A stretch of 64,000 nucleotides of DNA from Schmidtea polychroa. Taxonomy: Eukaryota. Below, one piece after another: positions 17,293-51,312 of the stretch. A program made the translations under genes and the position numbers. Under the pieces are notes generated by a model. It saw only the letters and a list, made by a program, of their open reading frames with translations. It did not search any database and had not been told where the DNA came from. The DNA lies in NCBI GenBank assembly GCA_044892525.1, contig CM097885.1, positions 247,504,001 through 247,568,000 of the forward strand. Direction: 5' to 3'. Numbering within the stretch: the stretch's first letter is position 1; every line of letters begins with the position of its first letter.

Positions 17293-17538
17293 TGTGAGGA
17301 AGATTTAATTATTAGCACAATATAATATTATAATAATAAATTTACATCTGAATTATTACTATTAAGAAATTAACATATACATATATTAAAGTATTATATT
17401 CGTATTATATTATGGCGTACATAATTATTATTGTTATTTATAAATGCTTAATCGTCAATTTAATGATTTGTTTAGTCAAACCGATATTGTTATAGTTTTT
17501 GAATACAATTTGAATTCGACTTCTAGTTTTATTTAACA
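17293..17538 (+). repeat. 5' LTR (246 bp)
   Basis: TGTGAGGAAG...TTTAACA; no differences from 22217-22462 found by eye. Confidence 0.97.
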
Positions 17539-21700: not shown

Positions 21701-22249
21701 AACATAATGCTTCAATTTTCAAGTCCATACCATCATAGTGCAAATGGATTAATAGAACGGCAATTTCGAACAATAAGAGATTTCATGAGTACCTCAATTA
21801 AAGATAGATTAAAAAGCAATTGGGTAGAGGTATTACCAGAAATTGAATTTGCTTTGAACGCAACCGTACAAAGTACACTAGGGAAAAGTCCAGCGGAAAT
21901 AGTATTTGGGTTTCGAATAACAAGAGAATGGCAAAACAAAAAGGAAGTTAATAATGACCGAATTAGAATCATTGAAGAGATACAAGAAAAGCAAAGAAAT
22001 GTTAAGTACAGAAACGCAGATAGAATTAATAGAGAATTTAAAATAGATGACAACGTTTTAGTAAAGATAGACATAAGAAAAAAAGAAGATGATAGATACA
22101 GAGGACCTTTTCGAGTGATAAAAAAACTACATGATAGAAGTTACGAACTTATGGATAGAGAAGGTAATATAATGATTCGAAATGTAGAATGGCTAAAGCC
22201 TTTTAAACAGGGGGGATGTGAGGAAGATTTAATTATTAGCACAATATAA
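18644..22249 (+). CDS. pol: Pol polyprotein (aspartic protease, RT, RNase H, integrase with GPY/F-like tail)
   Basis: LLDTGA protease, YLDDILIF RT, DTDAS...TDH RNase H, HHCC plus IAIDF..D..E integrase, YRGPF; no ATG before the protease domain region start; stop codon lies inside the 3' LTR. Confidence 0.96.
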   Translation, partial: WTPKWEGSIIRRDDRSHALKGNNDDCVRQDKYSIFFNNNSNSNLDSIYNFKSSNNNLDSISKSNLKVKNIRFKSDVILEDSIKNVKIKLKKYDVIKKDNQSNSKIIYDVRDKTDINDCNWMRDKINVIENKCDQNCKKIISICEAKLINSSKKFVYDETLDKHINNISVLNDDLEIVYDKMGGRPSVIVGINRIYFKHCLLDTGARMNVIDSSIIKEIGEIDIKPHNEGIWCANGSPLETFGNVKLKIQIGNKEENVIFVVVKKVSPPIIGGIDLLRQFNIKLMKINDSITENTEIENNFNEICNIEARFSNSYNDEKRFSRAIKLFDLKKGDKMYQIINENKEVFMADKWDIGKTDLLWHEIKTTEGPIYMNPRRQPAHLEEKIEEAIKNLEENGIIRKCDSSWNTPLVCVWKKEKNDIRLCLDFRNLNKITERQIFPMPNIEQMLDSLNGSKFFSTIDLGSAYYQVELTNNSQEKTAFSTRSGQYCFNRMPFGIAAAPATFQKLMNMVLGKLLWNTAIVYLDDILIFSTNKEEHFKRINEVLMKIKEAGLRVNPEKCIFLTNETKFLGHIINNKGVKVDENKIEAIKNFVRPKCLKQLRSFLGLCNYYRKFIKNYSMFSRILESICGTTNEKLIWSEKCEEAFEELKNALSKTPVLIYPNFQKEFILDTDASFDTIGAVLSQLDEQGHERVIAYGSHSMNKHEIGYCITRKELLAIYYFTKHFKHYLYGKKFKLRTDHKAITFMMTTKKPITAQFQTWINFLSSLDMDISFRKGMEHTNADALSRDNCGRCTQCMEVHENPKTEKMKTRLLTMTAVKQGVIWQKGNVEIENQKELIMKNVKTKFKIDDDVIMTKENKIWIPKNNREKFIKEMHKILCHAGCKKVIDYIKVNYDMDELQMITTEIIQNCELCQKRKTLTTKTKETILKTEVSKPFETIAIDFCGPLKTSVHGKKYILGIIDMCTRYISLTAVSKQDEKTTADTIMKFWILKYGSPRIIQVDCGKTFESGVMKELAKTHNIMLQFSSPYHHSANGLIERQFRTIRDFMSTSIKDRLKSNWVEVLPEIEFALNATVQSTLGKSPAEIVFGFRITREWQNKKEVNNDRIRIIEEIQEKQRNVKYRNADRINREFKIDDNVLVKIDIRKKEDDRYRGPFRVIKKLHDRSYELMDREGNIMIRNVEWLKPFKQGGCEEDLIISTI
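18650..18692 (+). promoter_or_regulatory. -1 programmed ribosomal frameshift signal (slippery heptamer plus hairpin)
   Basis: C CCA AAT in the gag frame, 5-nt spacer, then hairpin GGCTCC-ATCAT...ATGAT-A-GGAGCC; the pol (-1) frame is open from 18644. Confidence 0.8.
22205..22216 (+). promoter_or_regulatory. polypurine tract
   Basis: AAACAGGGGGGA directly before the 3' LTR TG. Confidence 0.85.
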
Positions 22250-31652: not shown

Positions 31653-31920
31653 GGCGACGCTCTAGTATAGGGGGCAATATAAATATAAATTAATTAATTG
31701 ATTGTAAGTTTTTATATATAGTCTGAATTTATCCGAAAAAATATTTTGTCCCCCTATGTGTATTTGTAGTAAGGGTACTGGTCACATTCAACATGTCGCA
31801 AGGGTATATTAATTATATTTTATTATATTTTATTAAATTACATATATTATTTTATATTTTATAATCAATTAATTAATTTTTATTTATATTTATATTGCCC
31901 CTCTATACTAGAGCGTCGCC
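31653..31920. mobile_element. MITE with ~40-60-bp TIRs starting GG (Merlin- or hAT-like)
   Basis: GGCGACGCTCTAGTATAGGGGGCAATATAAATATAAAT inverted at 31920; perfect 8-bp TSD AAAATATA. Confidence 0.85.
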
Positions 31921-33879
31921 AAAATATATATATTTATTTTCGAATATTTTAAAATATTTCAATATTTCTCTTATTGATTTTTGAACATGGAATCATTTCC
32001 ATCAAATTCATTTGTTATAATTCATCAATACTGAAAGTTCTTTTAGAAAATATTTTCAATATCAAATTGCTTAATTTTATGCTTGATGCCACTTTTCCGT
32101 CTCCTTTTTCAAATTGACAACATTTTTCGTTAATTTTTCGACCCCATCGAAATCACATTTGTCGTTTAGGTTGTTCCATATCTTCTCCATTACAAAAAAA
32201 ATTTGAAATTTTAATTAAGATTAGGGAAAGAATGAAACATTGTTTATTGTCTTCTTTGTCCTAATAATCCGGTTCCATAAAATATTGATAATGCCAATGT
32301 CAACAATGCAGCAATAAAGCTTCTTTATGGTTTATACATCATATTTCGAACAAAGATAATCTTCCAAATGTTTAAGCTAAAATTACGACTACTGATGGTT
32401 ATTCATTCAGAGTTTTTATAAATTCTATTGAGCTAAGAAAATCACTTATATCTAGAGGACGACGGCATGCGTGGTATTAACCTGAAATTGGTTTACGATT
32501 ATATTTTAACTATTCCCCCAACAAGCGTGGAAGCTGGACGGGCTTTCTCTTCTTCAGGGATGTAATGTACCAAAATACTTTCTTCTTTAAATGACAAAAC
32601 TTTAAATAATTTATGTTTTTTGAGATCATATTTTAATACTAAATAATTCTTTATTTTTATGTCTATCTGTTTTAAATAAATCGGTTTTAACCATTTTGTT
32701 ACTTTAAACGATAAAAGTTTTTGAACTTTTTATTTATCCTTTTGTATTTCGATTTGTGCTTTTTCCAATTTCCGGTATTGGAAGCCCTAATCTTGACATG
32801 TGCTTTTAGAAACATGGTTAATATTATATTTTATTTCAGTTTTGTCTTTAAACCATGCCTCCTTTTTTAATTAAAATTATTGATCCAAACTCGTAATTCA
32901 GCTGGACATTATTGAGTGAAATCTGAAAATTCCGATTATTATTATACGCCTGCCTAACGAGAAAATCAATAACAGTGACATCACTTGGGATTTAAAACTA
33001 CTCATTTTTGCACATTCAAATGACATATTCTCCTTGATGATACAGATTTTGAGTTATTAAAGTCACCGTGATACCAACATTTCTACTAATCTTTGTAAAT
33101 AAATTATTGAATTTTTTCTTTATTTGCTTCTTGATATAAATCATCAATGAGCATAACATTACTCTTTTGTAATCAACATTACCAATTTTTAGCGAATCCC
33201 TTAATTATTTTATAATTTTTAATTTACAGTATCTCGTTTGTGTCTATCAATGTTCTTCACTCGCTCCACAATACCAATAACACTTATTGAATTTAGATTT
33301 GGGTAAATTTTATTTGAATATTTTGCCAAAAAAATCTATTAATACTGGACCCGACAATTAGGTAAACTGCATTATTCCGTATTCCATTTTCAAAATTAAA
33401 ATATTCAGATATTGTTTATATAAATCAATTGAACGAATTATTATTAAGAATAATTTAAATAGAGATCAGAATTAATTTGATTAAAAATGTAATTAAATAT
33501 AAATTAATTCATTTTAATCTAGATATCCTTATGCGAATTATCATTGTTAAGATGGAAAAGCTTAGCTGGAAATTTTATCGGAATTAATATGATGTGCACC
33601 AGAAATAATTTAATACAGAATTTTGCTTGCGACGGGATGGGTACAATACCATTGATGAAAAGCGTTTTTTATTTTGTTGAAAATTTTTATAAAATAAAAA
33701 AAGTGAAAAGAAACAAATAGTGCAACATTTATGAAATTTAAACAAAGATTTATACACTTGAACGGTTTTGATTGGGCAACCTTTGACATGATCTTTAAAA
33801 TTAGCTATAATTTAACAATTAAATCAAATCTTTGCAAAATTTTTATCAGCGTCTGATGGCTACATTGTCAACTGAGGAT

Positions 33880-34320: not shown

Positions 34321-34625
34321 CAAAGAGAATTCAATAAAATACTATAACCTTTGATTAATTCATTGTTGAGATATGATTTTTTGTTGAAAAATACTTGCTT
34401 TGTGATGACCTACAACATATCAAAAGTTAATGTTTTCATAAAATACTTTTTAATCACCAAAGCTATTTAAAAAGTTGAAACACAAACCATTTGTATCGAA
34501 TTTTTCGTCCTTTCAGCGACATAATTTCATCATGGGACATGTGTGAACATTAAGCAAGATTTTTTAAATTTGAATTTTAAATATCTTTTCAATTTATATG
34601 ACAATACAGAATTTGATTTCATTAT

Positions 34626-36141
34626 AGTAGGTAGATGTGAGCCCCATGAATCAGTATGAGTTATCGCGCATATATACCCCCCCCCCCTTGCTGATAAGTT
34701 ATTGCGCGTTTGATCGATGAGTTATAGCGCATATATTGATTTTTAAGTGCAAAGTGCAAAATGTGCAAAATGTGCAAAATGTGCAAAATGTGTAAAATTT
34801 ATTCAGGTGTGCTTTTCTTACATTAAAGATTTCACCCAGACATTTTCCACGAAAAAAGATTTGTTATTTGTCGACACAGATTAATTTATATGAAATCAAC
34901 AAAAAGATTTCTTTTCAATATATATGTCACGTTTTTAAGGAATAATTTTTGGAACATTGGGAACCAAGTATATTTAGTCGAGACATCCTTAACAAAAAAG
35001 TTGCGTCTTGATTCAACTAAGAAGATTCTTTAATAAAGATCTCGAAAAATTTCTTGGTTCTCCTAGGAATTCAGAAAGTGTAATCAATCAATATTTTTGG
35101 GCTATCTTGAGAACGAGACATATTTAGTCGAGACATCCTTAACAAAAAAGTTCAACTAAGAAGATTCCGAAATAAAATCCTCGAAAAGTTTCTTGGTTCT
35201 CCCAGGAATTAAGAAAAGGTAAAATCAATCGATAATTCTCAAAAATTCGGCTATGTCCGAATGTATTATGAATTATCACGGATTTTGATTGATGAGTTAT
35301 TGCGCGTTTGATCGATGAGCTATCGCGCATATATACCCCCACCCCCCTACTGATGAGTTATTGCGCGTTTGATCGATGAGCTATCGCGCATATATACCCC
35401 CACCCCCCTACTGATGAGTTATTGCGCGTTTGATCGATGAGTTATCGCGCATATATTGATTTTTAAGTGCAAAGTGCAGAAAGTGCAAAATGTGCAAAAT
35501 GTGCAAAATTTAGTCAGATGTGCTTTTCTTACATTAAAGATTTCACCCAGACATTGTTCACGAAAAAGATTTGTTATTTGTCGACACAGATTATTTTATA
35601 TGAAAATCAACGAAAAGATTTCTTTTCGATATAAATTTCACGTTTTTAAGGAATAATTTTTGGAACATTGGGAACCAAGTATATTTAGTCGAGACATCCT
35701 TAACAAAAAAGTTGCGTCTTGATTCAACTAAGGAGATTCCGAAATAAAATCCTCGAAAAGTTTCTTGGTTCTCCCAGGAATTAAGAAAAAGTAAAACCAA
35801 TCGATAATTCTCAAAAATTCGGCTATGTCCGACGGACTTGAAATATTTTCAACCATTCTATTTATGACAGTGCATCGTAAAATTTACATATTTTGATTCG
35901 ACTTTCAGCTTTCTATAGTAGTTTTGAATGGAGATTTCAAATCTTTGTTCAAATGTATACTGTTATTGTGTCAACTATGAATATTTGTTTAAATAAACTC
36001 ATTTGATTAATATATAGAGCCAATATAAATAGAGATATTAATACCAATGTTTTTGTTTTATATGTAATTAAAATCAGAGATGTCGAATCTTTGTTTTAAA
36101 AATTATTTTTCGCGCGCAATTTAAAAAATATTTACTATTTC
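34626..36141 (+). repeat. left TIR (1516 bp) with internal duplications
   Basis: Reverse complement of 49704-51211 apart from a few indels and substitutions. Confidence 0.95.
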
Positions 36142-36180
36142 TAATTAAATTTTCAAAACAATGAAACATTTATTAAAAAA

Positions 36181-36537
36181 CTATTTGAAATATTTATACA
36201 ATTCGTTGAGTAGAATGTTTACTGTTTGTTTTCTTTTGTAAGTAATACATTCTTGACATTGATATTGACAACATGAATCTTTTAGTAATTGAGTTTGCTT
36301 TTCATATCCATACATCATAAATTTATGGTGAAAAATAATGCGCTCTATGTTAATCCCAGTTGCCTGAAATATTTTGGCTGGTGCAATTTCCGGAGCATAA
36401 TTTATAATTTCATCTTTGATTTCCGGATAAATCTCAAACACTTTATTAATTAGAATTTCTATTTGATAATCTAAACATAATTTTAAAAATTTAAGAATAA
36501 AATATATTTATTTACCGATTTCAGAAACTTGTGACAT
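36181..36537 (-). CDS. Polinton accessory protein, ~103 aa, CCxxxCxxC motif; predicted two exons (36537-36516, 36470-36181)
   Basis: Track ORF starts at GTG; removing a 45-nt G/GTAAAT...TTTAG intron joins MSQVSEI in frame to DYQIEILINKVFEIYPE. Confidence 0.6.
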
Positions 36538-36573
36538 TGTAATAAATGAAACAAATGTTAAAGTGTACAATAT

Positions 36574-37023
36574 TTATAGTTTTTGTGAACCAATCAAATC
36601 ATTTACATCATTTATAATTTTGTTGACAATCCAATTATAATTTAGAGTTTTTAAACCAAGTACAACTATTTTTCCACTAGAAAACAAGTTTACACACAAG
36701 GGGTTATAAGATATGAGACGCAAACCCGGGAATATTTCTGGTTCATATACACATTTTGTTTTCTTTGACAAATATTGCAAATTAATTAGTTGTTTGATAT
36801 CAATAGTAATTGTACAAGATTGAAGATGAACATCTTTAATATTATAATGTATGCTTTCAATAGGTTTTTTGCAACCCATTATTCGACATTTCCCTGTCTT
36901 GAAGAATATAATTGTATAATTATCAGTTTTATCTATTATTTGCTGAGGTTTACCATAAGGAAAATTCATATTTTGTATAACTTTTAATGAAACCCGTCCA
37001 CGGTAATTAATATTTACTAACAT
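36574..37023 (-). CDS. TATA-binding protein (TBP)-like protein, 149 aa
   Basis: Two TBP repeats: LVNINY...IIFFKTGKCRIMGCK and LQSCTI...YEPEIFPGL...VNLFSSGKIVVLGLK, compared with TBP YEPELFPGL...LIFVSGKVVLTGAK. Confidence 0.88.
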   Translation of the reverse strand: MLVNINYRGRVSLKVIQNMNFPYGKPQQIIDKTDNYTIIFFKTGKCRIMGCKKPIESIHYNIKDVHLQSCTITIDIKQLINLQYLSKKTKCVYEPEIFPGLRLISYNPLCVNLFSSGKIVVLGLKTLNYNWIVNKIINDVNDLIGSQKL

Positions 37024-37180
37024 TATTGAAAATAATGGATAACTCTAGGTAATTATATTGATTATTTTAAATTTTAAATATTATTATGACAACCAAATTA
37101 TGATATCATAACAACACGATTTTTAAACAGAAACATTTATTTAATAAAAATAACATAAGATATTAACATACATAATTTCT

Positions 37181-37573
37181 TTATAATTTTCCACTTACAA
37201 TCTTCCATATAGGTAATATTGCTGTACTTGGCGCTATTTTATAACCTTGAATGCAAATTTTCATATTCCATTTAGCATTAGGTTTAAATGGGATTTGATT
37301 CTCGTCTTCATCATAAAATTTCGTTGATGGACCGCCTATGAATGAACCATTTTCATTAACTATAAGTTGCTTGTTGATTCGTCCAAATATTGTAGTAATC
37401 GCTTCTTGATCTTCTTGAGAGAATTCTTCAATCCAGTAATTGTAACTAGTTTTCACTAGTTCAACAGGAATCAACAAATTGTAATTGATCGGATTGACTA
37501 GTAAATGTATTTGATGCTCATGAAAAATATAAGTTGCTTTAAATAACGGTTGCTCATTCTTCATATTCAACAT
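37181..37573 (-). CDS. hypothetical protein, possible OB-fold ssDNA-binding protein (130 aa)
   Basis: ATG-started intact ORF; TKFYDEDEN...MKICIQGY...PIWKIV resembles the C-terminal strands of NCLDV/T7 gp2.5-type SSBs (recalled pattern, not searched). Confidence 0.5.
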   Translation of the reverse strand: MLNMKNEQPLFKATYIFHEHQIHLLVNPINYNLLIPVELVKTSYNYWIEEFSQEDQEAITTIFGRINKQLIVNENGSFIGGPSTKFYDEDENQIPFKPNAKWNMKICIQGYKIAPSTAILPIWKIVSGKL

Positions 37574-37728
37574 TTGAAATAATGATAAACTTTAAGTTCT
37601 ATACACACACTGTCTCACATACATCTCTCATTTGTTCATTTTATCAACAAATCAAATACTTGTTACATTAACCAATCAAAATATGCATTAATCTTGCATA
37701 TTAATTTCAAGATACATTCATTTTTACA

Positions 37729-38163
37729 ATGAATGAATACATAATCGCCATTGTCAATGGTTTAATTTATAAAAGTGATGATCAAACAATAAATTGTTTA
37801 TTAAAAATAATAAAAGAAGTAGAGCTTCGATGTACCATTGATTTCTCTTCTATTTTATCATCGGAAGGTAATCAGGAAAAAACATTCAAGGATGTCTTTG
37901 AATCGTTGTTTGAGGATGGTATATGTTGGTCTAAAGTCATCGTTAGCTTAATGTATGTCAGAAACATTCTTATTTTATGCCCAAATGAACATCCAAAATA
38001 TATGAACTGGTCAGTGCAAGAAATTACAAAAATATACCCATGGATCAAAGAAAATGGTGACTGGAAATATATAAAAAAATTAGAGTTACATTTTTGGTTA
38101 AGAACTATGTTTAAACGTTTCATTATATTTTTTGTCAATTTAATAAAAATTTATAAACTTTGA
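37729..38163 (+). CDS. Bcl-2-like protein (144 aa)
   Basis: BH1-like LFEDGICWSKVIVSL (Bcl-2 family LFRDGVNWGRIVAFF), BH2-like WIKENGDW (WIQENGGW), hydrophobic C-terminal tail. Confidence 0.85.
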   Translation: MNEYIIAIVNGLIYKSDDQTINCLLKIIKEVELRCTIDFSSILSSEGNQEKTFKDVFESLFEDGICWSKVIVSLMYVRNILILCPNEHPKYMNWSVQEITKIYPWIKENGDWKYIKKLELHFWLRTMFKRFIIFFVNLIKIYKL

Positions 38164-38233
38164 TAGTTAATTTAACTTGCATCAAATTCATATTTATTAC
38201 TTACATATTAATAATAACATTCTAGATCAACCT

Positions 38234-38263
38234 AGAATGTTCTAGAACATTCTAGAACATTCT
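38234..38263. promoter_or_regulatory. heat-shock element with six alternating nGAAn units
   Basis: aGAAt gTTCt aGAAc aTTCt aGAAc aTTCt; further GAAnnTTC at 38341-38348 and TTCnnGAAnnTTC at ~38366-38378; TATATAA at 38354-38360. Confidence 0.75.
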
Positions 38264-38550
38264 AGTTGATTGGTAACAATAAATATTTAGATACAATAAT
38301 TAGTTATTATTTAACTATGAACAAAATCTATGAATAAAAAGAATATTCTTAGTTATATAAAAAAATTCTAGAAGATTCTATTTGGTTGTTAACAATAGTT
38401 GCTTAGATAATTAACTATTGTTTTAATATTACATTTGAATTTCAATTAATCAATTAATTTTTATCTAACAAGTAAGATTTTATTTTGCTCTTGTTAAATA
38501 TTTATTTTCTTTTCTTTCAGATATTATTCATTCAAAATAAAAGAAGAAGA

Positions 38551-38788
38551 ATGCCAAATATTAAAAAACAAACGGTAAACTTTATTTATTTAATATATAT
38601 ATTAAGTTTTTCGTTTAGAAAATATGTTGTGATATCGATCAAGGAAATGATATGGAAGATTTCTATGATACATGTAAGTTATAAATTTTTATAATAAATT
38701 AAATTTTAATTAAATACTATTTTTTTTTAATAAATTTTATAATAAGTTAAATGTTTTAGCCGCTTTTCATAATAATACATTTAAATTA
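38551..38788 (+). CDS. putative spliced micro-ORF (~35 aa, MPNIKKQTKICCDIDQGNDMEDFYDTSAFHIIHLN)
   Basis: Consecutive GT-AG introns at 38472-38520 (UTR), 38575-38618 and 38674-38759; coding status unproven. Confidence 0.35.
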
Positions 38789-39132
38789 ATTTTTTAATGA
38801 TGGTAATACGTTCCAGTATTAATTTTATATAATACAATTAAATTAATTTTTTAATGATGGTAATACGTTCCAGTATTAATTTTATAAGTTTCGATTCTAT
38901 GTTTAATTACAATAAGAAAAGCTTTCAAAATAAATTTCAATTTGTAAAATCGAAAACCCTTCAATTTAAATCAAAAATAACCGGTAATATTTTTCCAATT
39001 GCAAACTGGTTAACTAATCAAATAAAATTCAAATTCTATAAGTTTGAATTCTGCTTTAAATATTTTTGACTAAATTATATTACTTTTAACTTCAAGTAGC
39101 AAGCATATAATAAATTATTATTTATATGGTAA

Positions 39133-39316
39133 ATTGCTGACCGGACAGACAAAATAAATCCGACTAAGGGTACTTAGGGGTAGTCACCTGGGGTTGAAAC
39201 ATAGTCTATGACCTGTCCCGAGTCAAATGAGGGTCACGTGTAAAATTTCAGCATCCTAGGTCCGACGGTGGGGAATTCTATAGAAAACAAACAAACTTTC
39301 ATCTTTATATATTAGA
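39133..39316 (-). mobile_element. small Helitron-like (Lep1-type) insertion inside the Polinton
   Basis: Minus strand begins a/TCTAATATATAAAGATGAAAGTTTGTTTG and ends GTCTGTCCGGTCAGCAAT, resembling recalled ends of such elements; GC-richer than its flanks. Confidence 0.35.
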
Positions 39317-40101
39317 TTTAATTAAGGATTATTATTTTATATATATATATATATTTTTAATAAATTAAAATTGAAAAAATAGATACAAATCTTTGTGAAT
39401 TTGAGATTTTCTTTGAGATTTTCTCCATTGGGTGTCTTTTTAAAATATAATTAATATTATATTTAAACAAATTTAAACATAAATAATGTTTGTTTAAAAA
39501 AAAAATATCAAATGGTAAAAATGACAAAAACGGTAAAAATGTCAATTGTATCGTCTTATTTATAATATTAAACTAAACAACATTAATATTTTTTTAATAA
39601 ATTTTATAATAATTTTAATTTATTTTTAATATTATTAAAATAGTATAAACATTACAAGTTATTGTTTTTGCTATCATCAATACTCTATAGGAGACGCAAA
39701 GAATTCTTTATGTACCAATAAGAATACAATATTATTGATCTAGCTTTATTGCATACTTTCCATGGTACACTGGAAATCACATCACTTGCATAATAGCTTG
39801 GTCACAGAAATCTGTATTCACGTAAACATAAGGTATGAAATCATAATCACCTCTGTTGACTAAAAAAATAGTCAATACATAGAAACTGTTTACAAATGCA
39901 TCCGTTTACCTTTAGCATTTTTAACTTATAAAGTAATGGTTTTTTGTCGGATGTCTTACACTTGAATAAAATAAACTACACATTGTTTGTGATTATAAAA
40001 CTTTTTTCTCAAAATATATGGAACACAAAAGTGAAACCCGAATTATTTTAATAAAATAAAATTCATTTAATAAATATTTAAATCATTATTTATTTTAAGG
40101 T

Positions 40102-43100
40102 GTGTTATACCCAAATTATTGTCAAAACAGTAGTCACAATAAAAGCTGTCATAAAATCATGCAAACATATTATGGCAAAACATATTATCAACAAAATTAC
40201 TTTTTATGCCCATATTGCGAAACTTTAAGTTCCGATCCCTACATGTCCTTTTATAACACGCATAAGACACATTTAAATCAATTTGTGATGCGTAAAGATA
40301 AGCTTTTCAAAAGAAAGGTTTCCACTCACTTAATTAAAAATAAAAAAGCAAGATTGGAGAAAATAGAAAATACAATATCGAACTCAGAAATAATTGTAAT
40401 CATAGATTCGGAGGAAGAAGATTCGAGGCATGAAGAAACTGGAAGTTCAAGGCGCAACGAAGCAGGAAGTTTAAGGCGTGAAGAAGTTGGAAGTTCAAGG
40501 CCTGAAGATAAGCTTATCAAAAGAAAGGTTTCCACTCACTTAATTAAAAATAAAAAAGCAAGATTGGAGAAAATAGAAAATGCAAACTCAGAAATAATTG
40601 AAATCAAGGATTCGGAGGAAGAAGATTCGAGGCATGAAGAAGCTGAAAGTTCAAGGCGTGAAGACGCTGGAAGTTCAAGGCGCGAAGAAGCTGGAAGTTC
40701 AGGGCGCGAAGAAGCTGGAAGTTCAAGGCGCGAAGACGTTGGAAGATCTGAAGAAGAAGAAATTGATATAATAAATGGATCGTTTGAAATAATAGAAGAA
40801 CTAGATTTCAATGATCAAAACGAAAATATATCGAATGTTGACAGTGATAGTACTGACTATGCAGATCACTACTCACTAGTTGATGACTTTCAAACAGGAG
40901 CAGGAATATCAGATGAACCGGAAATTGAATGTGATTTATACAGAACACATAGAATTATCACACTGGACATATCTTGTTATAATATACAAAAAATAGTTAT
41001 TCCACCAACGTTGCTGATAAAATTAAACGCTTGTATAAATGAAATGAAGAGCGTTAAGATACAGTTCGAGATCAATGCAGAATTCGTCAAAGACGGTGAG
41101 CTGAAGACTGCAAGAATTTCAAACAGAGCCACAAAATTAACAGATGACTTTTTAGATGAAGGAATCGAAAGTTTGAATGAGAAAATTGCTATTAGATCGG
41201 AGTTGGGTAGCAGTTGGCGTCTTAACAGGATACTGGAGATTAATTTTAAAATAACAAAGTTTGCCGAAATTAGTCGATTGTCTGGACATCGACATATAAG
41301 AACCCGGCATCATTAAAGAATAAAATTATAAACATCCAAAATCAAGACAATCTGTGTTTTATCTACAGCGTTTTGTCTATATTGAAATACGAAGACATTC
41401 ATGAAAACCGTAACAGACCGTCACAATATTATCGGTACATGAATGAAGTAAATTACGATTCGGAAAACCCTCCGACAACATTGAATGACATAAAGAAATT
41501 TGAAGATCAGAATCCAGGATTGGCGATCAATGTTCTCTCATACGAGTCGGATGATACATATTTAAATAATGATGATGATGTTGTTATGAAACATCCGAAT
41601 ATAGACATAATTAGGAGGACAAAGGTTAAAGATGTTACACCAATATATTTATTATTACTAAGTGAAAGTAATAATTACCATTACGTTGGAATACCTAATA
41701 TCAACAGGTTAATGAACTGTCATGTATCCAATAATTGTACAGTTCGAATTCAATGTATATGGTGTGTAAATTGTCTAAATGGATTTCGGAGACAATTGAC
41801 ATATGAAAGACATCTGGCTTTATGTAAGAAAAATCAGCTTGGGACAACTTTGTACGTTATGCCAACAGAAAAAGAGCTCAGATTCAAAGATTGGTCGAAG
41901 AAAGTGACTCCACCTTTCGTAATCTATGCTGATTTCGAATCTATTTTACCAGACGATCAGCAATACCATCAGAAACACTTACCGATTTCAGCTGGACTTT
42001 TGCTGATAAACAATTTTAGCGGAGCTTCCTCATATTTTCAATTTATTGGGTTAAATTGTATATTTGATTTTTTAAAGAAAGTAGAGGAAATAGCAGAAAA
42101 TAAAGTAAATCATTATTACCAGAGAAATGGTAAACAACCTTTAATTCTCAGTCCAACGGAACAATCCTCTTTTAATATGCAATCATTTTGTTATATATGT
42201 AAGGAACACTGTGATCATTTGGTTCGAGATCATGATCATTTCAGCGGGAAATATTTAGGTGCGGCATGTGGAAAATGTAATCTTTCAAGAAGAGTACGTC
42301 GAGTGCTTCCAGTAGTATTTCATAACCTGAGAGGTTATGATATGCATCATATTTTAAAATATGGCATAAATAAATTCCCTCACTGGAATTTGAGTTGTAT
42401 TCCGACAACATCCGAAAAATTTCTTACGCTTATTGCGCATTGTAAGCAAATAAAGATCAAATTCATTGATTCATATCAGTTTGTAAATGAATCTTTGGAT
42501 AATGCAGTAAAAACAATAAACAGTTTACCAATTACAAATGCAGCATTTACGGGAACAATACAGGATTCAAAAGGTATTTTTCCATACAATTTTGCCACAA
42601 GCCTGGAAGTTCTACGAGAAACCAGAGAATTGCCACCAATTTGGGAAGGAGTGTCACAAGCCGCATATGATAAAGCAGTGAACATATGGTCTGAAACCGG
42701 ATGTGAAACCCTTTTAGACTATATGATGATATATCTAAAGTTGGATGTATATCTTTTAGCAGATTACTTTCAACAATTCAGAACTAAATCACTAGCCCAT
42801 AATGGATTGGAACCTTTAAATTTTTTCGGTATTCCGGGAATGACATGGGCATCGGCATTAATGTCATTGGATAGACCTATTGAATTGTTGCAAGATAATG
42901 AAATGTATAATTATTATGAAGCTGGCATTCGAGGAGGTATGACTTTCGTTAATAAACATCAAGTCAGAAGAGATGAAAATACAGAGTTATTATATATCGA
43001 TATAAATAACTTGTATGGATGGGCACTTAGTCAGAGTTTGCCATATGGAAAGTTTGAATGGATCCATACTGATTTGGACACTATTCTAGAAGAGTGTAAA

Positions 43101-44243
43101 TCATCAAACATAGAGAATTTACCATATGGATATACGTTGGAGGTTGATATGAATATTCCAGATGAAATTCATGATTTATTAGACGATTTACCTGTTGCAC
43201 CAGAGAAGATGTGTCCAGAAGGAACAAAAGTGGAAAAGCTTCTGTTAACACATTACCCGAAGAAAAACTATGTAATTCATTGGCGACTATTGAAAATGTA
43301 TATGTTTTTAGGAGTTGAAGTAACAAATATACATCGGGCAATCAAGTTTAACCAATCAACTATTTTCAAGGAATATGTGGAAGCCAACACCAAATTGAGG
43401 GCTCAATCAACATCTGAACTGGAGAAGGGATATTATAAACTATTAAACAACAGTTTATATGGGAAAACAGTGGAAAATTTAAAGAAGAGGATGAATTTAA
43501 GGTTGTGCAATTCACAAAGAAAAATGGTAACATATTCATCAAAACCAACCTTCAAGAGAAGTATAAAGATTGCAGATGATTTAATAGCTGCAATTATGAA
43601 CCCTGATGTTGTATGTTTGGATAGACCTTCGTATATTGGACAAACAGTTTTAGATCTCTCCAAACTAAGAATGTATGAGCTGCAGTATATAGAACTACAA
43701 AAGTACCGTGAACAGTTCAATTGTGAGATTAATATAGCAGCAGGGGATACGGATTCGTTCTTCTTGGAAATTAAGAATCTTAAATTGCAAACATTATTAG
43801 AAGCTATGATCCAAGATAATCTATTGGATGCATCTAATTATAATTCGTCTCATCCGCTGTATAACAGAAGATTAGATTCTGTTATAGGAAAGTTTAAGGA
43901 TGAAAGTAAGGGAGTCCTATATGATGAATGGATATTTCTTCGGCCAAAGCTTTATAGTTTGTTGGGTGGTCCAAAGAAAACTATTAAAGCCAAAGGTATT
44001 AGATTGAATGAAACTGAGATAGATCATCAATCATACATCGACTGTTTTAATGGAATGGAAATACCTAAAGTCATACAAACGAGGCTTGGGTCCAAAAATC
44101 ATCAACTTTACACATTTAAATCAACAAAGTTGGCTCTGTCAAATAAGGATGATAAAAGGGTATGGGTGGGTCGGAACAAAAGTTTTGCATATGGACACTA
44201 TAGTATAAATATTGTTGATAATGATGATAATATATTTGCATGA
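40102..44243 (+). CDS. polB: protein-primed DNA polymerase B, split by a one-base frameshift near 41303 (~1380 aa if joined)
   Basis: YIDINNLYG, KLLNNSLYGK and GDTDS motifs; endonuclease VII-like CYIC...RDHDH...ACGKCN insert; INIQNQDNLCF lies upstream of the 41373 ORF in the same frame. Confidence 0.95.
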
Positions 44244-44388
44244 TTATATGTGAAATCAACTGTCAAATTTCCTTAAACAGACATTCTATTTTTTATGTAT
44301 ATAAAGAGTTGTTATTGTTATTTAATAAAATATTGTACAAAAACTGTGTTATTTTAGTTATTTTTGAAAATAAAGAAATGAACACCAA

Positions 44389-44773
44389 CTAATATTTATT
44401 AAACTCAAAACATAACCAAACAATACAATGTTGTCCACATGTAACTGTTAGCGGTTCTTGATAACGAATTCTATTGTACACGATAGGTTTTGATAATTTC
44501 GACAACTTCGACACTAACAGAGGCGGATAATAGTAACCCATCGGATCAAACACTTTAATCTTTTCAGGTTTAACAAATACTGCTAGCCAATGTTCGCCAT
44601 CGAGACTTGATGATTGGGTATTGACTATTAAAGCATTGTTACTTTCAAGAAAAGGGATTTTATCCAGCGGATAAACTCCTAAAAACCTGTCTCCAAACAG
44701 ATTTGTTGCAATACAATTAAGCTGAACAGAACTAATCAAGTAAATCGTTTATTAGAAAGTAAACTTACTCCAT
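44389..44773 (-). CDS. adenain-like cysteine protease; predicted 5-nt first exon plus 37-nt intron (115 aa)
   Basis: GEHW, VFDPMG and YQ...TCGQHC catalytic motifs; ATG GA/GTAAGT...TTAG/T TCT GTT gives MDSVQL. Confidence 0.9.
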
Positions 44774-44803
44774 ACTTCAACTTACTCCATACTTCATCTT
44801 TGT

Positions 44804-46033
44804 TTAAACTAGAATTGACCGATTTGCTGAAATCTGTATTTCGCTTTCAAAAACTCCATAAATAATTACATATACAGGAGATGTTAAAGCCTTGTTGAAT
44901 TTAATATCAAGTCTCAGATTTCCATTTTGTGGCAATTGACTTTGATTCCAATCAAAGTCTGAAGCCAAAATGAATGTAAAGAAAGGATATTTGGTCTTAA
45001 AATCTACAATGTCGATTCCGCAATTTAAATTCTTATCTAAATAACCCATATTTCGAACTATAGATTGCATATAGGTCGCAGCATAGTTATCGTTGTCGAA
45101 ATCTTGAGTATATGTCTCACGATAATCGGAATTTTTTGATAAAGTTAAAGAAGTTATACTGAAATGTGCGAATTTTGAGCTAGTTTCTGTATATGAACCA
45201 TTATATTGTGCTTCTGATTGGAAGGTTACAAGAATAAAATTTGGCAAACGTTTATCGCCAAATATTTGTTCTTTATAAAATGAGGATGAATCTTTACTTA
45301 TTGCAAAGGCAACAATTTCTTTGGTTTTGATAGGATAAATCGCATGTTGTGAATTAAGACCAATCTGATGGCCTGCCAACACTGATGACTCAACTCGTAC
45401 ACGGCTAACCATTAATTTTGCATCAACCAACTGATATTTTGGTGATGCTCCAGCTACAGATGTATCCAAACAAAATTTTGAGTCTGATCTCTTCATACGA
45501 ATATGTACATTGACTCCTGGTAGTAAATATTTAGGCTGATCCATAAAATCTAGTTGTAATGATGAACACATTGAAAACAGTCTTGATTTCGCAATCCATG
45601 TTTTCCTAAAATCTTTACTTCCATAACCCATCGGCGCAAGACAAATACTTTTTGTATCTCCGTTATAGTTTAAAATTGTTTCAATTAAAGCTTTGTGTGC
45701 ATATGTGTTGTTGCCACTTTCGATTTTGATATTATTAAAACCCAGAATAACATCTTTAAATAGAGTATGAAACATGTAGTTGGTTGGAATTACATCAACA
45801 CCATCTGCCAGATCTTTATTGTCTTTATCTACAACCTTCAGTTGAATGGATAATAGAGTGTCATTCAAATCTAAATATTCAGTCTGTGAACCGTTAACAA
45901 AAAATTCTACATCATTCCTTGAATCAGTAATTGAATTCATAGGAAATACATCTTCAAATATTCCATTTTCAATTACTACTTGTGGAGACGGACGATCAAA
46001 AATACACAATTCAGTTTTACCGGAGATCATCAT
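44804..46033 (-). CDS. double jelly-roll major capsid protein (409 aa from ATG 46033)
   Basis: N-terminal KTELCIFDRPSPQ, YLDLNDTLLSIQLKV and C-terminal GNLRLDIKF..L...V.VIIYG.FE match Polinton MCP. Confidence 0.92.
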   Translation of the reverse strand: MMISGKTELCIFDRPSPQVVIENGIFEDVFPMNSITDSRNDVEFFVNGSQTEYLDLNDTLLSIQLKVVDKDNKDLADGVDVIPTNYMFHTLFKDVILGFNNIKIESGNNTYAHKALIETILNYNGDTKSICLAPMGYGSKDFRKTWIAKSRLFSMCSSLQLDFMDQPKYLLPGVNVHIRMKRSDSKFCLDTSVAGASPKYQLVDAKLMVSRVRVESSVLAGHQIGLNSQHAIYPIKTKEIVAFAISKDSSSFYKEQIFGDKRLPNFILVTFQSEAQYNGSYTETSSKFAHFSITSLTLSKNSDYRETYTQDFDNDNYAATYMQSIVRNMGYLDKNLNCGIDIVDFKTKYPFFTFILASDFDWNQSQLPQNGNLRLDIKFNKALTSPVYVIIYGVFESEIQISANRSILV

Positions 46034-46406
46034 TTTCGAATATTGTTCCACGACCTTTCCATCTTTTGTTTATACGAGATTTTCGTCGCTTACTCAAAAT
46101 TTGTTGTGGTGTTGATGTTGGAGGTTTTTTAGTTTCATTTGGTTTAGAAATCTTTGCTGCACTTGGCATCAATTTCCCAATTTCATTCATTGCATGTCTT
46201 TTCAATGTTGGTAGTATTTTTTGATCTTTCATTACCACATCCTTTGCTGTTCTCATGCCAAATGAACCAATCTTTTTAAGTATTGGAAGTGCGAACCTTC
46301 CAATTGTTTGCAACCATCCGGATCCATATTGCTTACCCATAAAATATGGTAATTCTCCACCAGTTTGACTATTACTATATAACGACACAATATCAGGATA
46401 AGACAT
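46017..46406 (-). CDS. basic virion core / membrane-active protein with Gly-Gly-type cleavage sites
   Basis: QTGG and QYGSG followed by amphipathic WLQTIGRFALPILKKIG; Lys/Arg-rich tail; conserved position upstream of MCP. Confidence 0.7.
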   Translation of the reverse strand: MSYPDIVSLYSNSQTGGELPYFMGKQYGSGWLQTIGRFALPILKKIGSFGMRTAKDVVMKDQKILPTLKRHAMNEIGKLMPSAAKISKPNETKKPPTSTPQQILSKRRKSRINKRWKGRGTIFENDDLR

Positions 46407-47409
46407 TCACCTTTCGAAAATGTAAAGTCAAATGGGTTTTTGAATCTTTTGAAAAGTTTATCAATTTTCCAGAATCATCACGTATATTAATTTCTATATT
46501 GTTTATACATGATGTTGCAACAGATAAATACATAGGATTTTCAATCGTTATCTGTACCACTTCATCTTGTTCATGCTTTTCAACCCATACTGCTTTCATT
46601 AGAGGAACACTTACATCACCAACAATTACAGATTCAACAATATTACTATAAATGAACATTTGCTGATGAAGTTTAATTATTTTTGGTTTCGATGTTCCTT
46701 CGTTAACTTTTAAGTTTTGTATATACGTTTCTTTTGATAATCCTAATGTCTTTACCAAATTAGAGTCAAATTTCATTTGGCCAACATTCGGATTCATTTG
46801 AAATTTAAAAAATTTGTCTAATTCAACAACAGCGAAAATATCTGCACAATGTTTTGTTAAATAAACTTTTAATTGATCAAGATCTGTAATATACAAATCA
46901 TCTTGAAATGTATAGCTATGCTCAACAGCTTTGTTATACAAGAGTTGAAATTTGAATATAGCATCAGTTTTTGGAAGAGTATCAATATCAAATTTCACCG
47001 TTTCATCAAAAGTGTTACGCAATAGAGTAAATCCTAGGCGTTTTGCATCAGTTAAGGTTTCAAATAAAAATTGAAATGGTCGCTTCAAACATTGAAAGTA
47101 TAAATATCTATCCTCAACATATATTATCGCATTTGTATTTGCTTGATTGATCATTTCATAGCTATCTTGAATTATCTGCACTTTGACAATTTCTGATACT
47201 GATTCCATCTTGGTATATTCAATCTTGGATTTACTGTAAAACGGAAAGAGATTGTATACAAATGTAAAACCCAACAAGGACACTTCCCAACTACCATTTA
47301 AATAGATTGGATTTTGAAGTTCGACAATAAATTTACTGGCATTGTTATTTGGATGAATTAAAGGAGAGCTATTGGTGGGTAAAATCATGTAAAAATTAGT
47401 TTTATTCAT
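46393..47409 (-). CDS. penton (single jelly-roll minor capsid protein), 338 aa from ATG 47409
   Basis: FYMILPTNSS..HPNN.ASKF.VEL..PI.L.GSWEVSL at the N-terminus; YSNIVE..IVGD..PL and I.I.IRD..G..I.F at the C-terminus. Confidence 0.9.
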   Translation of the reverse strand: MNKTNFYMILPTNSSPLIHPNNNASKFIVELQNPIYLNGSWEVSLLGFTFVYNLFPFYSKSKIEYTKMESVSEIVKVQIIQDSYEMINQANTNAIIYVEDRYLYFQCLKRPFQFLFETLTDAKRLGFTLLRNTFDETVKFDIDTLPKTDAIFKFQLLYNKAVEHSYTFQDDLYITDLDQLKVYLTKHCADIFAVVELDKFFKFQMNPNVGQMKFDSNLVKTLGLSKETYIQNLKVNEGTSKPKIIKLHQQMFIYSNIVESVIVGDVSVPLMKAVWVEKHEQDEVVQITIENPMYLSVATSCINNIEINIRDDSGKLINFSKDSKTHLTLHFRKVNVLS

Positions 47410-48428
47410 TTCAACTGAGATTCCAGTATCCAAGTAGGGTTTTGATAACCATGCCATTTGACATAATATTGTTTATGCTTCCCTTTTCCTCTGGTCTTTA
47501 GAATTTCTTGTATTCTAAAAGTTGTAGGACTTGGAATAACTTGTAATTCTTGTTCATAAAATTTACCTATAATTTCATTGTTATCATAATCCTTAATGAC
47601 ATACATTATTGGACTCTGTTTAGTGTTAATCTTCGAAATTTGAAAAACTTCGTCGCTCCAATTACTATCAAAGTTTTTAATGAATGGAGAAGCACTAATT
47701 TTTGATATTCTTACATAATCACTGATTTTATATTTTGCTTTCTTGGGTTTTGGAACTTGTCGAGATAACCATAATTTGACTTGATTATCATTTGAAACAT
47801 CAACTGGTCTTAATCCATTTAAACCACGGTGCGAGGAATGATTATATGAATGAATCAGATTTTGTAAAACATGTATCCATGTCTTATTGCCTTGATGTAC
47901 AAAATACTTTTTCAATTTATCTCTCAATGTACGATTAAATCGTTCGACATAGGCTGCCTTATATTGAGAATGAACAGTGTAGTGATTTACATGATTTTCT
48001 TTTAGAATTTGTTTAACTTTACTGTTGTAAAATTCCTTACCCAAATCAGTTTGCAAATTATCGGGATGTCCATCAGCAAATAAACTCTTTATTGCTTGAG
48101 CAATTTCACTAGCAGATTTAGTTTTAACAGGTATAGCTCTCGCAAATCGGCTAAATATGTCAATACATGTTAAAATATATTTGTAACCTTTGTTGATACT
48201 GGAATATGGAATCATTTCCAACAAATCCGCTTGCCATAAATCATCAATACCAAATGTTTTATATGCTCTTGTTGGAAATCTTTTTAACATCGGTTTGTTG
48301 AGACTGTATGCAAGTTGGCTTGATAACCAATTTCTTGTCTCTTTCTTTGATTTCTTCATTGCTTTCTGTAGTCTGTCGATTCCGCCGAAAGATGCTGGGT
48401 CTCTTGGATTTGTCCAAATTTTCTCCAT
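47406..48428 (-). CDS. int: retroviral-like DDE integrase with C-terminal chromodomain (340 aa from ATG 48428)
   Basis: WQADL, IDIFSRFA, LQTDLGKEF, VERFNRTL; ILKTRG...YYVKWHGY..TWI chromodomain. Confidence 0.95.
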   Translation of the reverse strand: MEKIWTNPRDPASFGGIDRLQKAMKKSKKETRNWLSSQLAYSLNKPMLKRFPTRAYKTFGIDDLWQADLLEMIPYSSINKGYKYILTCIDIFSRFARAIPVKTKSASEIAQAIKSLFADGHPDNLQTDLGKEFYNSKVKQILKENHVNHYTVHSQYKAAYVERFNRTLRDKLKKYFVHQGNKTWIHVLQNLIHSYNHSSHRGLNGLRPVDVSNDNQVKLWLSRQVPKPKKAKYKISDYVRISKISASPFIKNFDSNWSDEVFQISKINTKQSPIMYVIKDYDNNEIIGKFYEQELQVIPSPTTFRIQEILKTRGKGKHKQYYVKWHGYQNPTWILESQLK

Positions 48429-48489
48429 TGCAACAATTTGAATTAAAATCAAGTTTGAAATTCGGTAATGAAGGACTACCACCCATTGT

Positions 48490-49092
48490 TTATGAACTTC
48501 GACTTCCTAATAAACCTGCTCCACCTAATAAAGATAATGCAAGAGGAATTAATGCAGCTATAAATCCTCCTTGTTGTTTATACATAATCTTTCTCATTTG
48601 TTTTTTGTTTTTGCTATTTACAAGTGATAGAAGCGATTTCTTGTGTTTTTCCAAAATATGTTTTCTTGCACTGCTTATATTTATCTTCCCATGTACAACT
48701 TTCATTATAATATCAAGTAAATCATCTATCACAAATGTAGGGAATGTTTGTAAAATTATCATTCTTGATTGTTTAGGAGCCTTCAACAAAGAATTAAAAT
48801 ATGGTAAGCTTCTTGGAATTTTGATTTTTCTAGATGCTATAAAATCTTTAGGTTTTTGTTTTGATAATTGAAACTCTTTTGGTTCAGTGTAACTGGTTTT
48901 CAGTGGAATTTTATTTGCAATTTTATTTGTAATTTTCCTCTTCTTACGCTTTGCAATCAAATTCTTCAATTTCTTTGAAGGTTTGATAATTACTTTTTGA
49001 AAAGACATTATTAATCTTTTCAAGTGATCAACTTTGTTTATATACTGTTGCACCGTTTTTGTTAAATATATCTGTTCGAACTCGTAATTCAT
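48490..49092 (-). CDS. basic Polinton structural protein ending QQGG-FIAALIPLALSLLGG (start may be ATG 49008)
   Basis: Lys-rich body with a C-terminal QxGG site and hydrophobic helix, as seen in Polinton core proteins. Confidence 0.7.
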   Translation of the reverse strand: MNYEFEQIYLTKTVQQYINKVDHLKRLIMSFQKVIIKPSKKLKNLIAKRKKRKITNKIANKIPLKTSYTEPKEFQLSKQKPKDFIASRKIKIPRSLPYFNSLLKAPKQSRMIILQTFPTFVIDDLLDIIMKVVHGKINISSARKHILEKHKKSLLSLVNSKNKKQMRKIMYKQQGGFIAALIPLALSLLGGAGLLGSRSS

Positions 49093-49651
49093 CCGAACAT
49101 TTTTGGGTAAAGTCTAGAAATAAATATCCATGGGGAATTTTAGTTGCATCTTGAAATGCTTCTAGTAGAAACTTCCTATTGTTTGGGTATGCTTGTCTTG
49201 CTAGAAAATCAATGACTGTTGCATCTCTAGGGTTTTTAAAAATTGTTAGATAATGTACATTTAAATTACGAGTTCTATGATTTCCTCCTTGATGGAAAAG
49301 ATTTTGGGTTATAAAAATAACTGTAACTCCAACATGTCTAGAAATCTTTGTAAACAAATTATTAAATTCCTTTTCTTTGTTGGCTTCTTGATATAAATCA
49401 TCAATGATGATGACATCTCTCTTTTGTAAACGTTTTGTCCAATCTTTATCAAACCCTTTTATAATTTTCATTTGTACTTTACAGAATTCTGAATGCGTCA
49501 AACCATTTTCAGTTTCTGAACCTCGATGCCAATATATTTTGTTGAATTTTTCAACAAACAAATTAGACTGAAGCAATTTACATACAAAAAGCGTTTTACC
49601 GCTTCCACTAGGACCGACAATTTGATAAACAGCTTCATTTTGTAATTCCAT
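49028..49651 (-). CDS. FtsK/A32-family genome-packaging ATPase
   Basis: Walker A GPSGSGKT, Walker B IIIDD, SRH..VTVIFITQNLF; TATATAAA on the minus strand at 49684-49677. Confidence 0.95.
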   Translation of the reverse strand: MELQNEAVYQIVGPSGSGKTLFVCKLLQSNLFVEKFNKIYWHRGSETENGLTHSEFCKVQMKIIKGFDKDWTKRLQKRDVIIIDDLYQEANKEKEFNNLFTKISRHVGVTVIFITQNLFHQGGNHRTRNLNVHYLTIFKNPRDATVIDFLARQAYPNNRKFLLEAFQDATKIPHGYLFLDFTQKCSDELRVRTDIFNKNGATVYKQS

Positions 49652-49703
49652 TTAAAAAGATGTACTACAAATATTGTTTATATAATGAGTCGAAAAACAT
49701 GTT

Positions 49704-51211
49704 GAAATAGTTAATATTTTTTAAATTGCGCGCGAAAAATAATTTTTAAAACAAAGATTCGACATCTCTGATTTTAATTACATATAAAACAAAAACATTG
49801 GTATTAATATCTCTATTTATATTGGCTCTATATATTAATCAAATGAGTTTATTTAAACAAATATTCATAGTTGACACAATAACAGTATACATTTGAACAA
49901 AGATTTGAAATCTCCATTCAAAACTACTATAGAAAGCTGAAAGTCGAATCAAAATATGTAAATTTTACGATGCACTGTCATAAATAGAATGGTTGAAAAT
50001 ATTTCAAGTCCGTCGGACATAGCCGAATTTTTGAGAATTATCGATTGGTTTTACTTTTTCTTAATTCCTGGGAGAACCAAGAAACTTTTCGAGGATTTTA
50101 TTTCGGAATCTCCTTAGTTGAATCAAGACGCAACTTTTTTGTTAAGGATGTCTCGACTAAATATACTTGGTTCCCAATGTTCCAAAAATTATTCCTTAAA
50201 AACGTGAAATTTATATCGAAAAGAAATCTTTTCGTTGATTTTCATATAAAATAATCTGTGTCGACAAATAACAAATCTTTTTCGTGAACAATGTCTGGGT
50301 GAAATCTTTAATGTAAGAAAAGCACATCTGACTAAATTTTGCACATTTTGCACATTTTGCACTTTCTGCACTTTGCACTTAAAAATCAATATATGCGCGA
50401 TAACTCATCGATCAAACGCGCAATAACTCATCAGTAGGGGGGTGGGGGTATATATGCGCGATAGCTCATCGATCAAACGCGCAATAACTCATCAGTAGGG
50501 GGGTGGGGGTATATATGCGCGATAGCTCATCGATCAAACGCGCAATAACTCATCAATCAAAATCCGTGATAATTCATAATACATTCGGACATAGCCGAAT
50601 TTTTGAGAATTATCGATTGATTTTACCTTTTCTTAATTCCTGGGAGAACCAAGAAACTTTTCGAGGATTTTATTTCGGAATCTTCTTAGTTGAATCAAGA
50701 CGCAACTTTTTTGTTAAGGATGTCTCGACTAAATATGTCTCGTTCTCAAGATAGCCCAAAAATATTGATTGATTACACTTTCTGAATTCCTAGGAGAACC
50801 AAGAAATTTTTCGAGATCTTTATTAAAGAATCTTCTTAGTTGAATCAAGACGCAACTTTTTTGTTAAGGATGTCTCGACTAAATATACTTGGTTCCCAAT
50901 GTTCCAAAAATTATTCCTTAAAAACGTGACATATATATTGAAAAGAAATCTTTTTGTTGATTTCATATAAATTAATCTGTGTCGACAAATAACAAATCTT
51001 TTTTCGTGGAAAATGTCTGGGTGAAATCTTTAATGTAAGAAAAGCACACCTGAATAAATTTTACACATTTTTGCACATTTTGCACTTTGCACTTAAAAAT
51101 CAATATATGCGCGATAACTCATCGATCAAACGCGCAATAACTTATCAGCAAGGGGGGGGTATATATGCGCGATAACTCATACTGATTCATGGGGCTCACA
51201 TCTACCTAACT
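49704..51211 (-). repeat. right TIR (1508 bp)
   Basis: Inverted copy of 34626-36141. Confidence 0.95.
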
Positions 51212-51312
51212 CATTATATTGATAGTTATCTTCTCTTTCCTACGGTGGAGAAGAGAGAATTTTCCAACTGTGGAGACACGAAACTAATTTGCATAAAGTT
51301 TTTATTGAAAAC

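Follow-up and report, generated by a model that had tools for sequence, protein, structure and literature searches.

Where does a Polinton maturation protease begin when its reading frame offers no start codon? The question is raised by a locus within a 64-kb stretch of DNA (the window), in which the protease gene lies on the minus strand. As reported in an initial annotation of the window, the protease frame (44748-44389, minus strand) has no in-frame start ATG: it is closed upstream by the in-frame stop TAA at 44751-44749. No ATG precedes the catalytic His, and the first in-frame ATG, at 44541, is located downstream of this residue. The protease gene most likely needs host splicing, because a tiny intron parts the start codon from the rest of the gene and is shared by related elements. 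From the comparison of sequences we infer, with high confidence, that the start is joined to the gene by removal of a 37-nt intron, i.e., that the protease is encoded by a two-exon gene.

The Polinton Element and Its Surroundings

The protease belongs to an element that resembles Polintons/Mavericks (adintovirus, Eupolintoviridae) in its polymerase, integrase, ATPase, TIRs and 6-bp TSD, and in a His-Asp-Cys adenain-type protease (PRO/Adenain) that directly follows the major capsid gene. The features needed here are:

34626-51211 (unstranded): Polinton/Maverick (adintovirus-type) element of 16,586 bp, with long TIRs and the 6-bp TSD CATTAT (34620-34625 and 51212-51217)
44804-46033 (minus strand): probable major capsid protein gene, directly upstream of the protease, with Atlas look-alikes
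38472-40099 (plus strand): predicted spliced leader of the polymerase, with GT-AG introns of 49 nt (38472-38520), 44 nt (38575-38618) and 1426 nt (38674-40099) and congruent frames

The TIR arms (991 and 368 nt) are 100% complementary, and CATTAT is present on both sides. The retrovirus-like integrase and the packaging ATPase match the Pfam families rve (E 1e-11) and Pox_A32 (E 1e-8), respectively. The protein-primed family B polymerase was undetected in searches of Pfam, PDB and PHROGs, has DNA_pol_B_2 look-alikes in the Atlas at 0.98 and contains motifs A, B, and C. The gene upstream of the protease probably encodes the capsid protein, with Atlas look-alikes at 0.98 (15-30% of their members have a DJR-like domain, and the recognition score is low) and no Pfam match.

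Several further observations concern the element and its neighborhood. The window contains apparently intact frames for a gag of 395 aa and a pol of 1201 aa at 17514-22249 (plus strand), which we take to be Gypsy-like from their motifs, and a decayed older Polinton remnant at 31900-33200, which resembles the young element's integrase and ATPase genes at 71-80%. The element itself carries a short TBP-like gene (36577-37044, minus strand, E 2e-14) and a Bcl-2-like gene (37705-38160, plus strand, E 1e-7). Tandem repeats with periods of 204 and 24 occupy 40295-40760 (plus strand) in the N-terminal frame of the polymerase, and the polymerase frame is broken at 41274-41316 (plus strand), where contigs of the sequencing runs X1, X8 and X12 differ from the window; the break may be peculiar to this copy, or the assembly may be in error there. 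An Endonuclease VII/HNH-like domain is located inside the polymerase (42180-42285, plus strand), as described for Polintons of the pPolB2 class (10.1101/2023.08.22.554363).

A Candidate 37-nt Intron at the Protease Start

Between the capsid stop codon and the protease frame, the minus strand presents the following features, listed from upstream to downstream:

44800-44808 (minus strand): TTTAAACAA box, a variant of the promoter-like box (T)ATAAACAA, overlapping the capsid stop codon; putative function
44787-44797 (minus strand): third unit, ATG AA/GTATGG, weaker, ATG at 44797; would give a 61-nt intron
44780-44790 (minus strand): distal unit, ATG GA/GTAAGT, ATG at 44790 and donor at 44785, 17 nt from the box; would correspond to an intron of 54 nt
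44763-44796 (minus strand): perfect 17-bp tandem duplication, copies 44796-44780 and 44779-44763 being identical
44769-44773 (minus strand): coding part of predicted exon 1 in the proximal unit, made up of the ATG and the first two bases of codon 2, at a distance of 34 nt from the box
44732-44768 (minus strand): candidate 37-nt phase-2 GT-AG intron, present at the same position in 12/51 relatives
44389-44731 (minus strand): predicted exon 2 of the maturation protease, with the last base of codon 2, 113 codons and the stop

The initial annotation had proposed an ATG GA followed by a consensus donor and a TAG acceptor 37 nt apart, and this layout is indeed present: the proximal unit consists of the ATG at 44773-44771, GA, the donor GTAAGT at 44768-44763 and an acceptor TAG ending at 44732, and the next full codon, from 44730, is in the protease frame. 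The candidate intron holds the in-frame stop that closes the protease frame, AATAAA at 44753, and the motif CTAAT, the A of which lies 17 nt from the intron start and 20 nt from its 3′ end. The motif ATGRAGTRAGT occurs twice in the 64 kb, both times at the protease start (0.09 expected), and the arrangement of ATG, donor and acceptor arises by chance in 129 of 200,000 shuffles of the 60 nt before exon 2.

The enzyme encoded by exon 2 is intact in its catalytic residues. Its product matches Pfam Peptidase_C5 above the cut-off, adenain (1avp) matches the protease with an E of 6e-8, and the His-Asp-Cys triad and the oxyanion Gln of C5 proteases, invariant in 9/9 aligned sequences, are all kept in the window (His47, Asp62, Gln91 and Cys98 in exon-2 numbering). 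At 115 aa, the predicted protease is shorter than adenain (204 aa). The window contains no second copy of the protease.

According to the proposed mechanism, host RNA polymerase II would initiate some 25-30 nt past the TATA-like box (44808-44800), so that the transcript start would fall a few bases before the ATG at 44773. The host spliceosome would then remove the 37-nt intron and join the ATG and the split Asp codon to exon 2, yielding the 115-residue adenain-type maturation protease, while an unspliced transcript would give only a two-codon product.

Conservation of the Intron Among Related Elements

A profile search of metagenome contigs returned 66 loci, 51 of which could be parsed (15 without the exact GEHW motif were left out). 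In 12 of these 51 relatives, the phase-2 position of the window intron, immediately ahead of the same conserved Ser/Thr, is occupied by an intron of the form ATG+RA/GTRA...AG/Y. A direct in-frame ATG is present in 38, and the remaining one (L009) has the acceptor, but its locus is cut by the contig edge. A blind search over 116 loci for the pattern of box, ATG, donor and acceptor matched exactly the 12 intron-bearing relatives. They represent eight lineages (four pairs at 94-99%) with 47-71% protein identity between lineages; among the 13 intron-bearing proteins including the window, identity starts from 47%, with a median of 58%. The GT donor and the AG acceptor, as in spliceosomal introns of the U2 type, are found at the shared position and phase in 13/13 loci, and each layout would arise in 4-129 of 200,000 shuffles per locus. 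The comparative evidence thereby supports the earlier proposal that the start of the maturation protease depends on splicing.

The intron interior has evolved freely by comparison. Intron length is 37-43 nt and is not a multiple of three in 8 of the 12 relatives; L012 and L013 differ by 2 nt inside the intron. Interiors are a median of 62% alike, compared to 59% for shuffles (95th percentile 70%), and the signature of introners (near-identical introns at many sites) is absent between lineages, the interiors being unrelated. In all 13 loci, the unspliced reading stops after two codons. The bases flanking the intron are R-A and Y in 13/13, so that the split codon 2 encodes Asn or Asp, which is also residue 2 in 92 of the 131 homologues with a start 42-56 residues ahead of the His motif (among the 150 matches listed). 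The splice consensus favors AG/G at the exon junction; the flanking bases here appear to follow the codon need of the protein rather than this consensus.

One element of the initial annotation did not extend to the relatives: the CTAAT taken as a branch site is present in the window, but recurs in none of the 12 relatives, which counts against the 37-nt intron. The looser motifs TTAAY/TTGAT are found in the introns of 9/12 relatives, and AT-rich DNA yields such motifs easily. The AATAAA at 44753, considered as a conserved poly(A) signal of the capsid gene, was rejected in this role, with AATAAA in 0/12 introns of the relatives. Likewise, L019 and L023 were rejected as intron carriers: their 72-nt candidates have non-consensus donors, and a direct ATG is present.

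Immediately behind the protease, several of the loci L001-L006, L011-L014, L021 and L022 have an extra ORF (about 155-190 aa), which starts like 'YFIDFQGF' and often has its own box; the window is without this ORF.

A 25-row tree of the capsid protein groups the window, 10 intron-bearing loci and the intron-less L010 in one clade (100/100). The protein of L010 begins with Met-Asp-Ser, and its locus (1464-1530) has a direct ATG immediately behind the capsid stop, with the box 30 nt away. The capsid tree pairs L010 with L011 (88/89), an AU test leaves a single intron clade unrejected (p 0.26), and the protease tree is poorly resolved. L010 may have lost the intron precisely, or it may have branched off early. 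Viral contigs gave no matches with a single-protein query and 50 distant loci (26-35% identity) with an alignment query, and none matched the pattern of box and intron. Taken together, conservation identifies the intron as an old trait of one Polinton clade, and we regard a clade-wide micro-intron that separates the start codon from the maturation protease as real, as far as sequences can tell.

Could the protease be translated from unspliced RNA instead, from the near-cognate TTG at 44739, the splice signals being there by chance? This TTG lies in the protease frame, three codons ahead of the conserved Ser (the window also has an in-frame ACG), and the database protein P0001 begins at the equivalent place, from an unstated start codon. 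However, a TTG at this position is found in none of the 12 intron-bearing relatives. Eight of them have no in-frame ATG, TTG, CTG, GTG or ACG before exon 2, L003 and L011 are without a near-cognate codon of any tested kind there, and in 9/12 the first Met of exon 2 comes after the catalytic His. The TTG start therefore cannot be the general solution, and it would leave the conserved ATG+RA/GTRA unit unexplained; we consider it very unlikely. Against a spliced start speak the TTG and ACG codons of the window, and L006 and L012, each of which carries a further in-frame ATG ahead of exon 2.

Other Copies of the Locus

The start of the window copy might also have decayed privately, i.e., the copy might be a mutated pseudogene that has lost its direct ATG. 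Relatives with a direct ATG exist, as seen above, and the broken polymerase frame indicates that the copy or its assembly is not flawless. Of 19 sequencing runs, 14 contain the stretch or part of it, none of them recorded as RNA; contigs of four runs (X1, X8, X12 and X6) were aligned to 40800-49690. A 293-nt contig from the DNA run X6 (record 23) covers 44645-44937 without any difference from the window, at a depth of 1098, which is similar to that of the other main contigs of the element. This main DNA form has the tandem duplication and no direct ATG, so that the main form gives no sign of an unsplit start. Private decay of the start is excluded, because the main form in X6 is identical across this interval. 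The perfectly complementary TIR arms, the intact catalytic residues and the occurrence of the same layout in eight other lineages likewise speak against a pseudogene, an explanation that hardly deserves credence. A diverged copy in X6 (record 22) lacks one base inside the distal unit and has 25 other differences in 290 nt; it may be a decayed copy. Among the 15 contig joints listed, out of 40, none corresponds to 44732-44768 or 44732-44785. The three runs tentatively marked as RNA have a fairly even, DNA-like depth over genes of both strands, and this result is therefore uninformative about splicing.

The Promoter-Like Box and the Choice of Start Unit

In all 12 relatives, the protease ATG is preceded by a ATAAACAA box at a distance of 31-35 nt (30 nt in L010). 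It sits in the tail of the capsid gene, where it is read as Ile-Asn codons, a pair that codon usage alone would give in 3-10% of cases (10 loci with long frames), and it also precedes other genes of the module. The window's capsid tail is without the ATAAACAA box that relatives have there; instead, TTTAAACAA, a one-mismatch variant of ATAAACAA, overlaps the stop codon. A promoter role of TTTAAACAA and ATAAACAA is suggested by their position. The protease ATG lies -1 to 4 nt from the capsid stop in the relatives, while the three ATGs of the window lie at 6, 13 and 30 nt from it, and at 10, 17 and 34 nt from TTTAAACAA; the third unit is the one nearest to the ATG position of the relatives, and only the proximal ATG fits the distance from the box seen in them.

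The motif ATAAACA occurs seven times on the sense (minus) strand and once on the other strand within 44300-49700 of the window. Five of the seven sense copies are located 30-67 nt before a likely gene start, and two are without a suitable ATG in the next 80 nt. Genes of relatives are preceded by this box, too. The short TBP-like protein of the element is a candidate reader of the box.

The initial annotation had noted a second ATG GA/GTAAGT at 44790, created by a 17-bp tandem duplication. The duplication was verified as perfect and the second unit is present, which raises the possibility that splicing is real, but that the distal unit with its 54-nt intron works, alone or along with the proximal one, the duplication lengthening a too-short intron to host size. 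The two donors are identical and both in phase 2, and the duplication is part of the main DNA form. Moreover, short introns of Schmidtea mediterranea are described as peaking at 45-85 nt (PMC13594981), so that the 54-nt form, which falls within this peak, would be favored over one of 37 nt if the host is a planarian. Against this, the distal ATG is only 17 nt from the box, compared to the 31-35 nt kept in relatives; the introns of all 12 relatives measure 37-43 nt, and a 37-nt peak is reported for the introns of a fluke (PMC6530080); a 44-nt intron is predicted elsewhere in the same element; and the diverged copy in X6 has lost a base of this unit. Use of the distal unit is thus a tentative alternative that we think rather unlikely.

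The boxes of the integrase and capsid genes are followed by out-of-frame ATGs at 7 and 11 nt, which suggests that the zone just after a box is untranscribed. The distal ATG is probably too near the promoter-like box to be transcribed, and the proximal ATG at 44773 is most likely the start used, although this choice of unit is less sure than the spliced start as such. The second unit of the initial annotation thus stands as a sequence feature, more likely as part of a spacer than as a start. The duplicated start-plus-donor unit is a trait of the window's lineage, and we slightly favor the idea that the duplication acts as a spacer, which places the unit at the clade's usual distance from the box. 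In the simplest history, the unit near 44797 would be ancestral; the ancestral box in the capsid tail would have been lost, a new box would have arisen on the capsid stop, and short tandem repeats would have moved a copy of the unit to working distance, restoring the spacing.

Annotation of the Protease in Databases

As the initial annotation had anticipated, ORF finders miscall the protease start: within one 90%-identity cluster, the same protease is listed with four starts (P0004, P0010, P0011 and P0012; 102, 124, 150 and 155 aa). P0004, P0012, P0014, P0015 and P0049 begin with hydrophobic stretches such as reading through an AT-rich intron would produce. P0019 looks like the protein of L011 begun at a later Met.

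Relation to Known Systems

In adenoviruses, the start of pTP and of the polymerase lies in a three-codon upstream exon. Adenovirus pTP is described as encoded on two exons (PMC11304566), and acceptors just before the ATG are described for LO4-LO7 of adomaviruses (10.1101/341131). These are related viruses that use host splicing; however, they employ long leaders and a shared promoter, whereas in the window the 37-nt intron is local, comes after a box of the gene's own and interrupts the second codon of the protease. Microintrons of flukes are reported to peak at 37 nt, to have near-consensus splice sites while other signals are often lost, and to be enriched near the transcription start, but they are known from host genes, whereas the window intron resides in a Polinton gene (PMC6530080).

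Within Polintons, the description of intact vertebrate Mavericks speaks of "eight conserved and intronless ORFs" (PMC8097293), in contrast to the window, in which the protease start would occupy a separate 5-nt coding exon. Dinoflagellate eupolintoviruses are reported to bear introners, spliceosomal introns inside polinton-like elements (PMC12166617); these are young insertions of intron-generating transposons, whereas the window intron is old, with a position fixed throughout the clade and an unconserved interior. The consulted text of the adintovirus paper (PMC8502044) has no mention of splicing and one unrelated mention of an intron, and the excerpts of a nematode Polinton paper and two PLV papers mention group I introns only. 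In the papers it covered, our literature search turned up no description of an intron within the protease gene of a Polinton, although Repbase entries and key reviews may mention one.

Implications for Polinton Biology

Descriptions of animal Mavericks, and screens for them, treat the core genes as intronless ORFs (PMC8097293). Any clade with the protease start in a 5-nt exon would score as defective or receive a wrong N-terminus, as public entries already do. The spacing between box and ATG, in turn, predicts the transcription start site.

A regulatory role for the intron is speculation, and an ordinary 5′-proximal microintron under purifying selection explains the data equally well. One might imagine that the protease, as the sole late virion gene gated by an intron, is subject to a valve that sets its timing or dose, that polymerase II transcribes the virion genes in the nucleus rather than in a giant-virus factory, and that loss of the box was offset by duplications restoring a strict spacing of 31-35 nt; we hold this combination to be doubtful, at perhaps one chance in several. 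Nevertheless, a spliceosomal intron in a virion-maturation gene bears on the question of whether Polinton particles are made alone in the nucleus or need a giant virus. A working valve would place transcription of the virion genes in the nucleus, under host polymerase II, instead of in the cytoplasmic factory of a helper giant virus.
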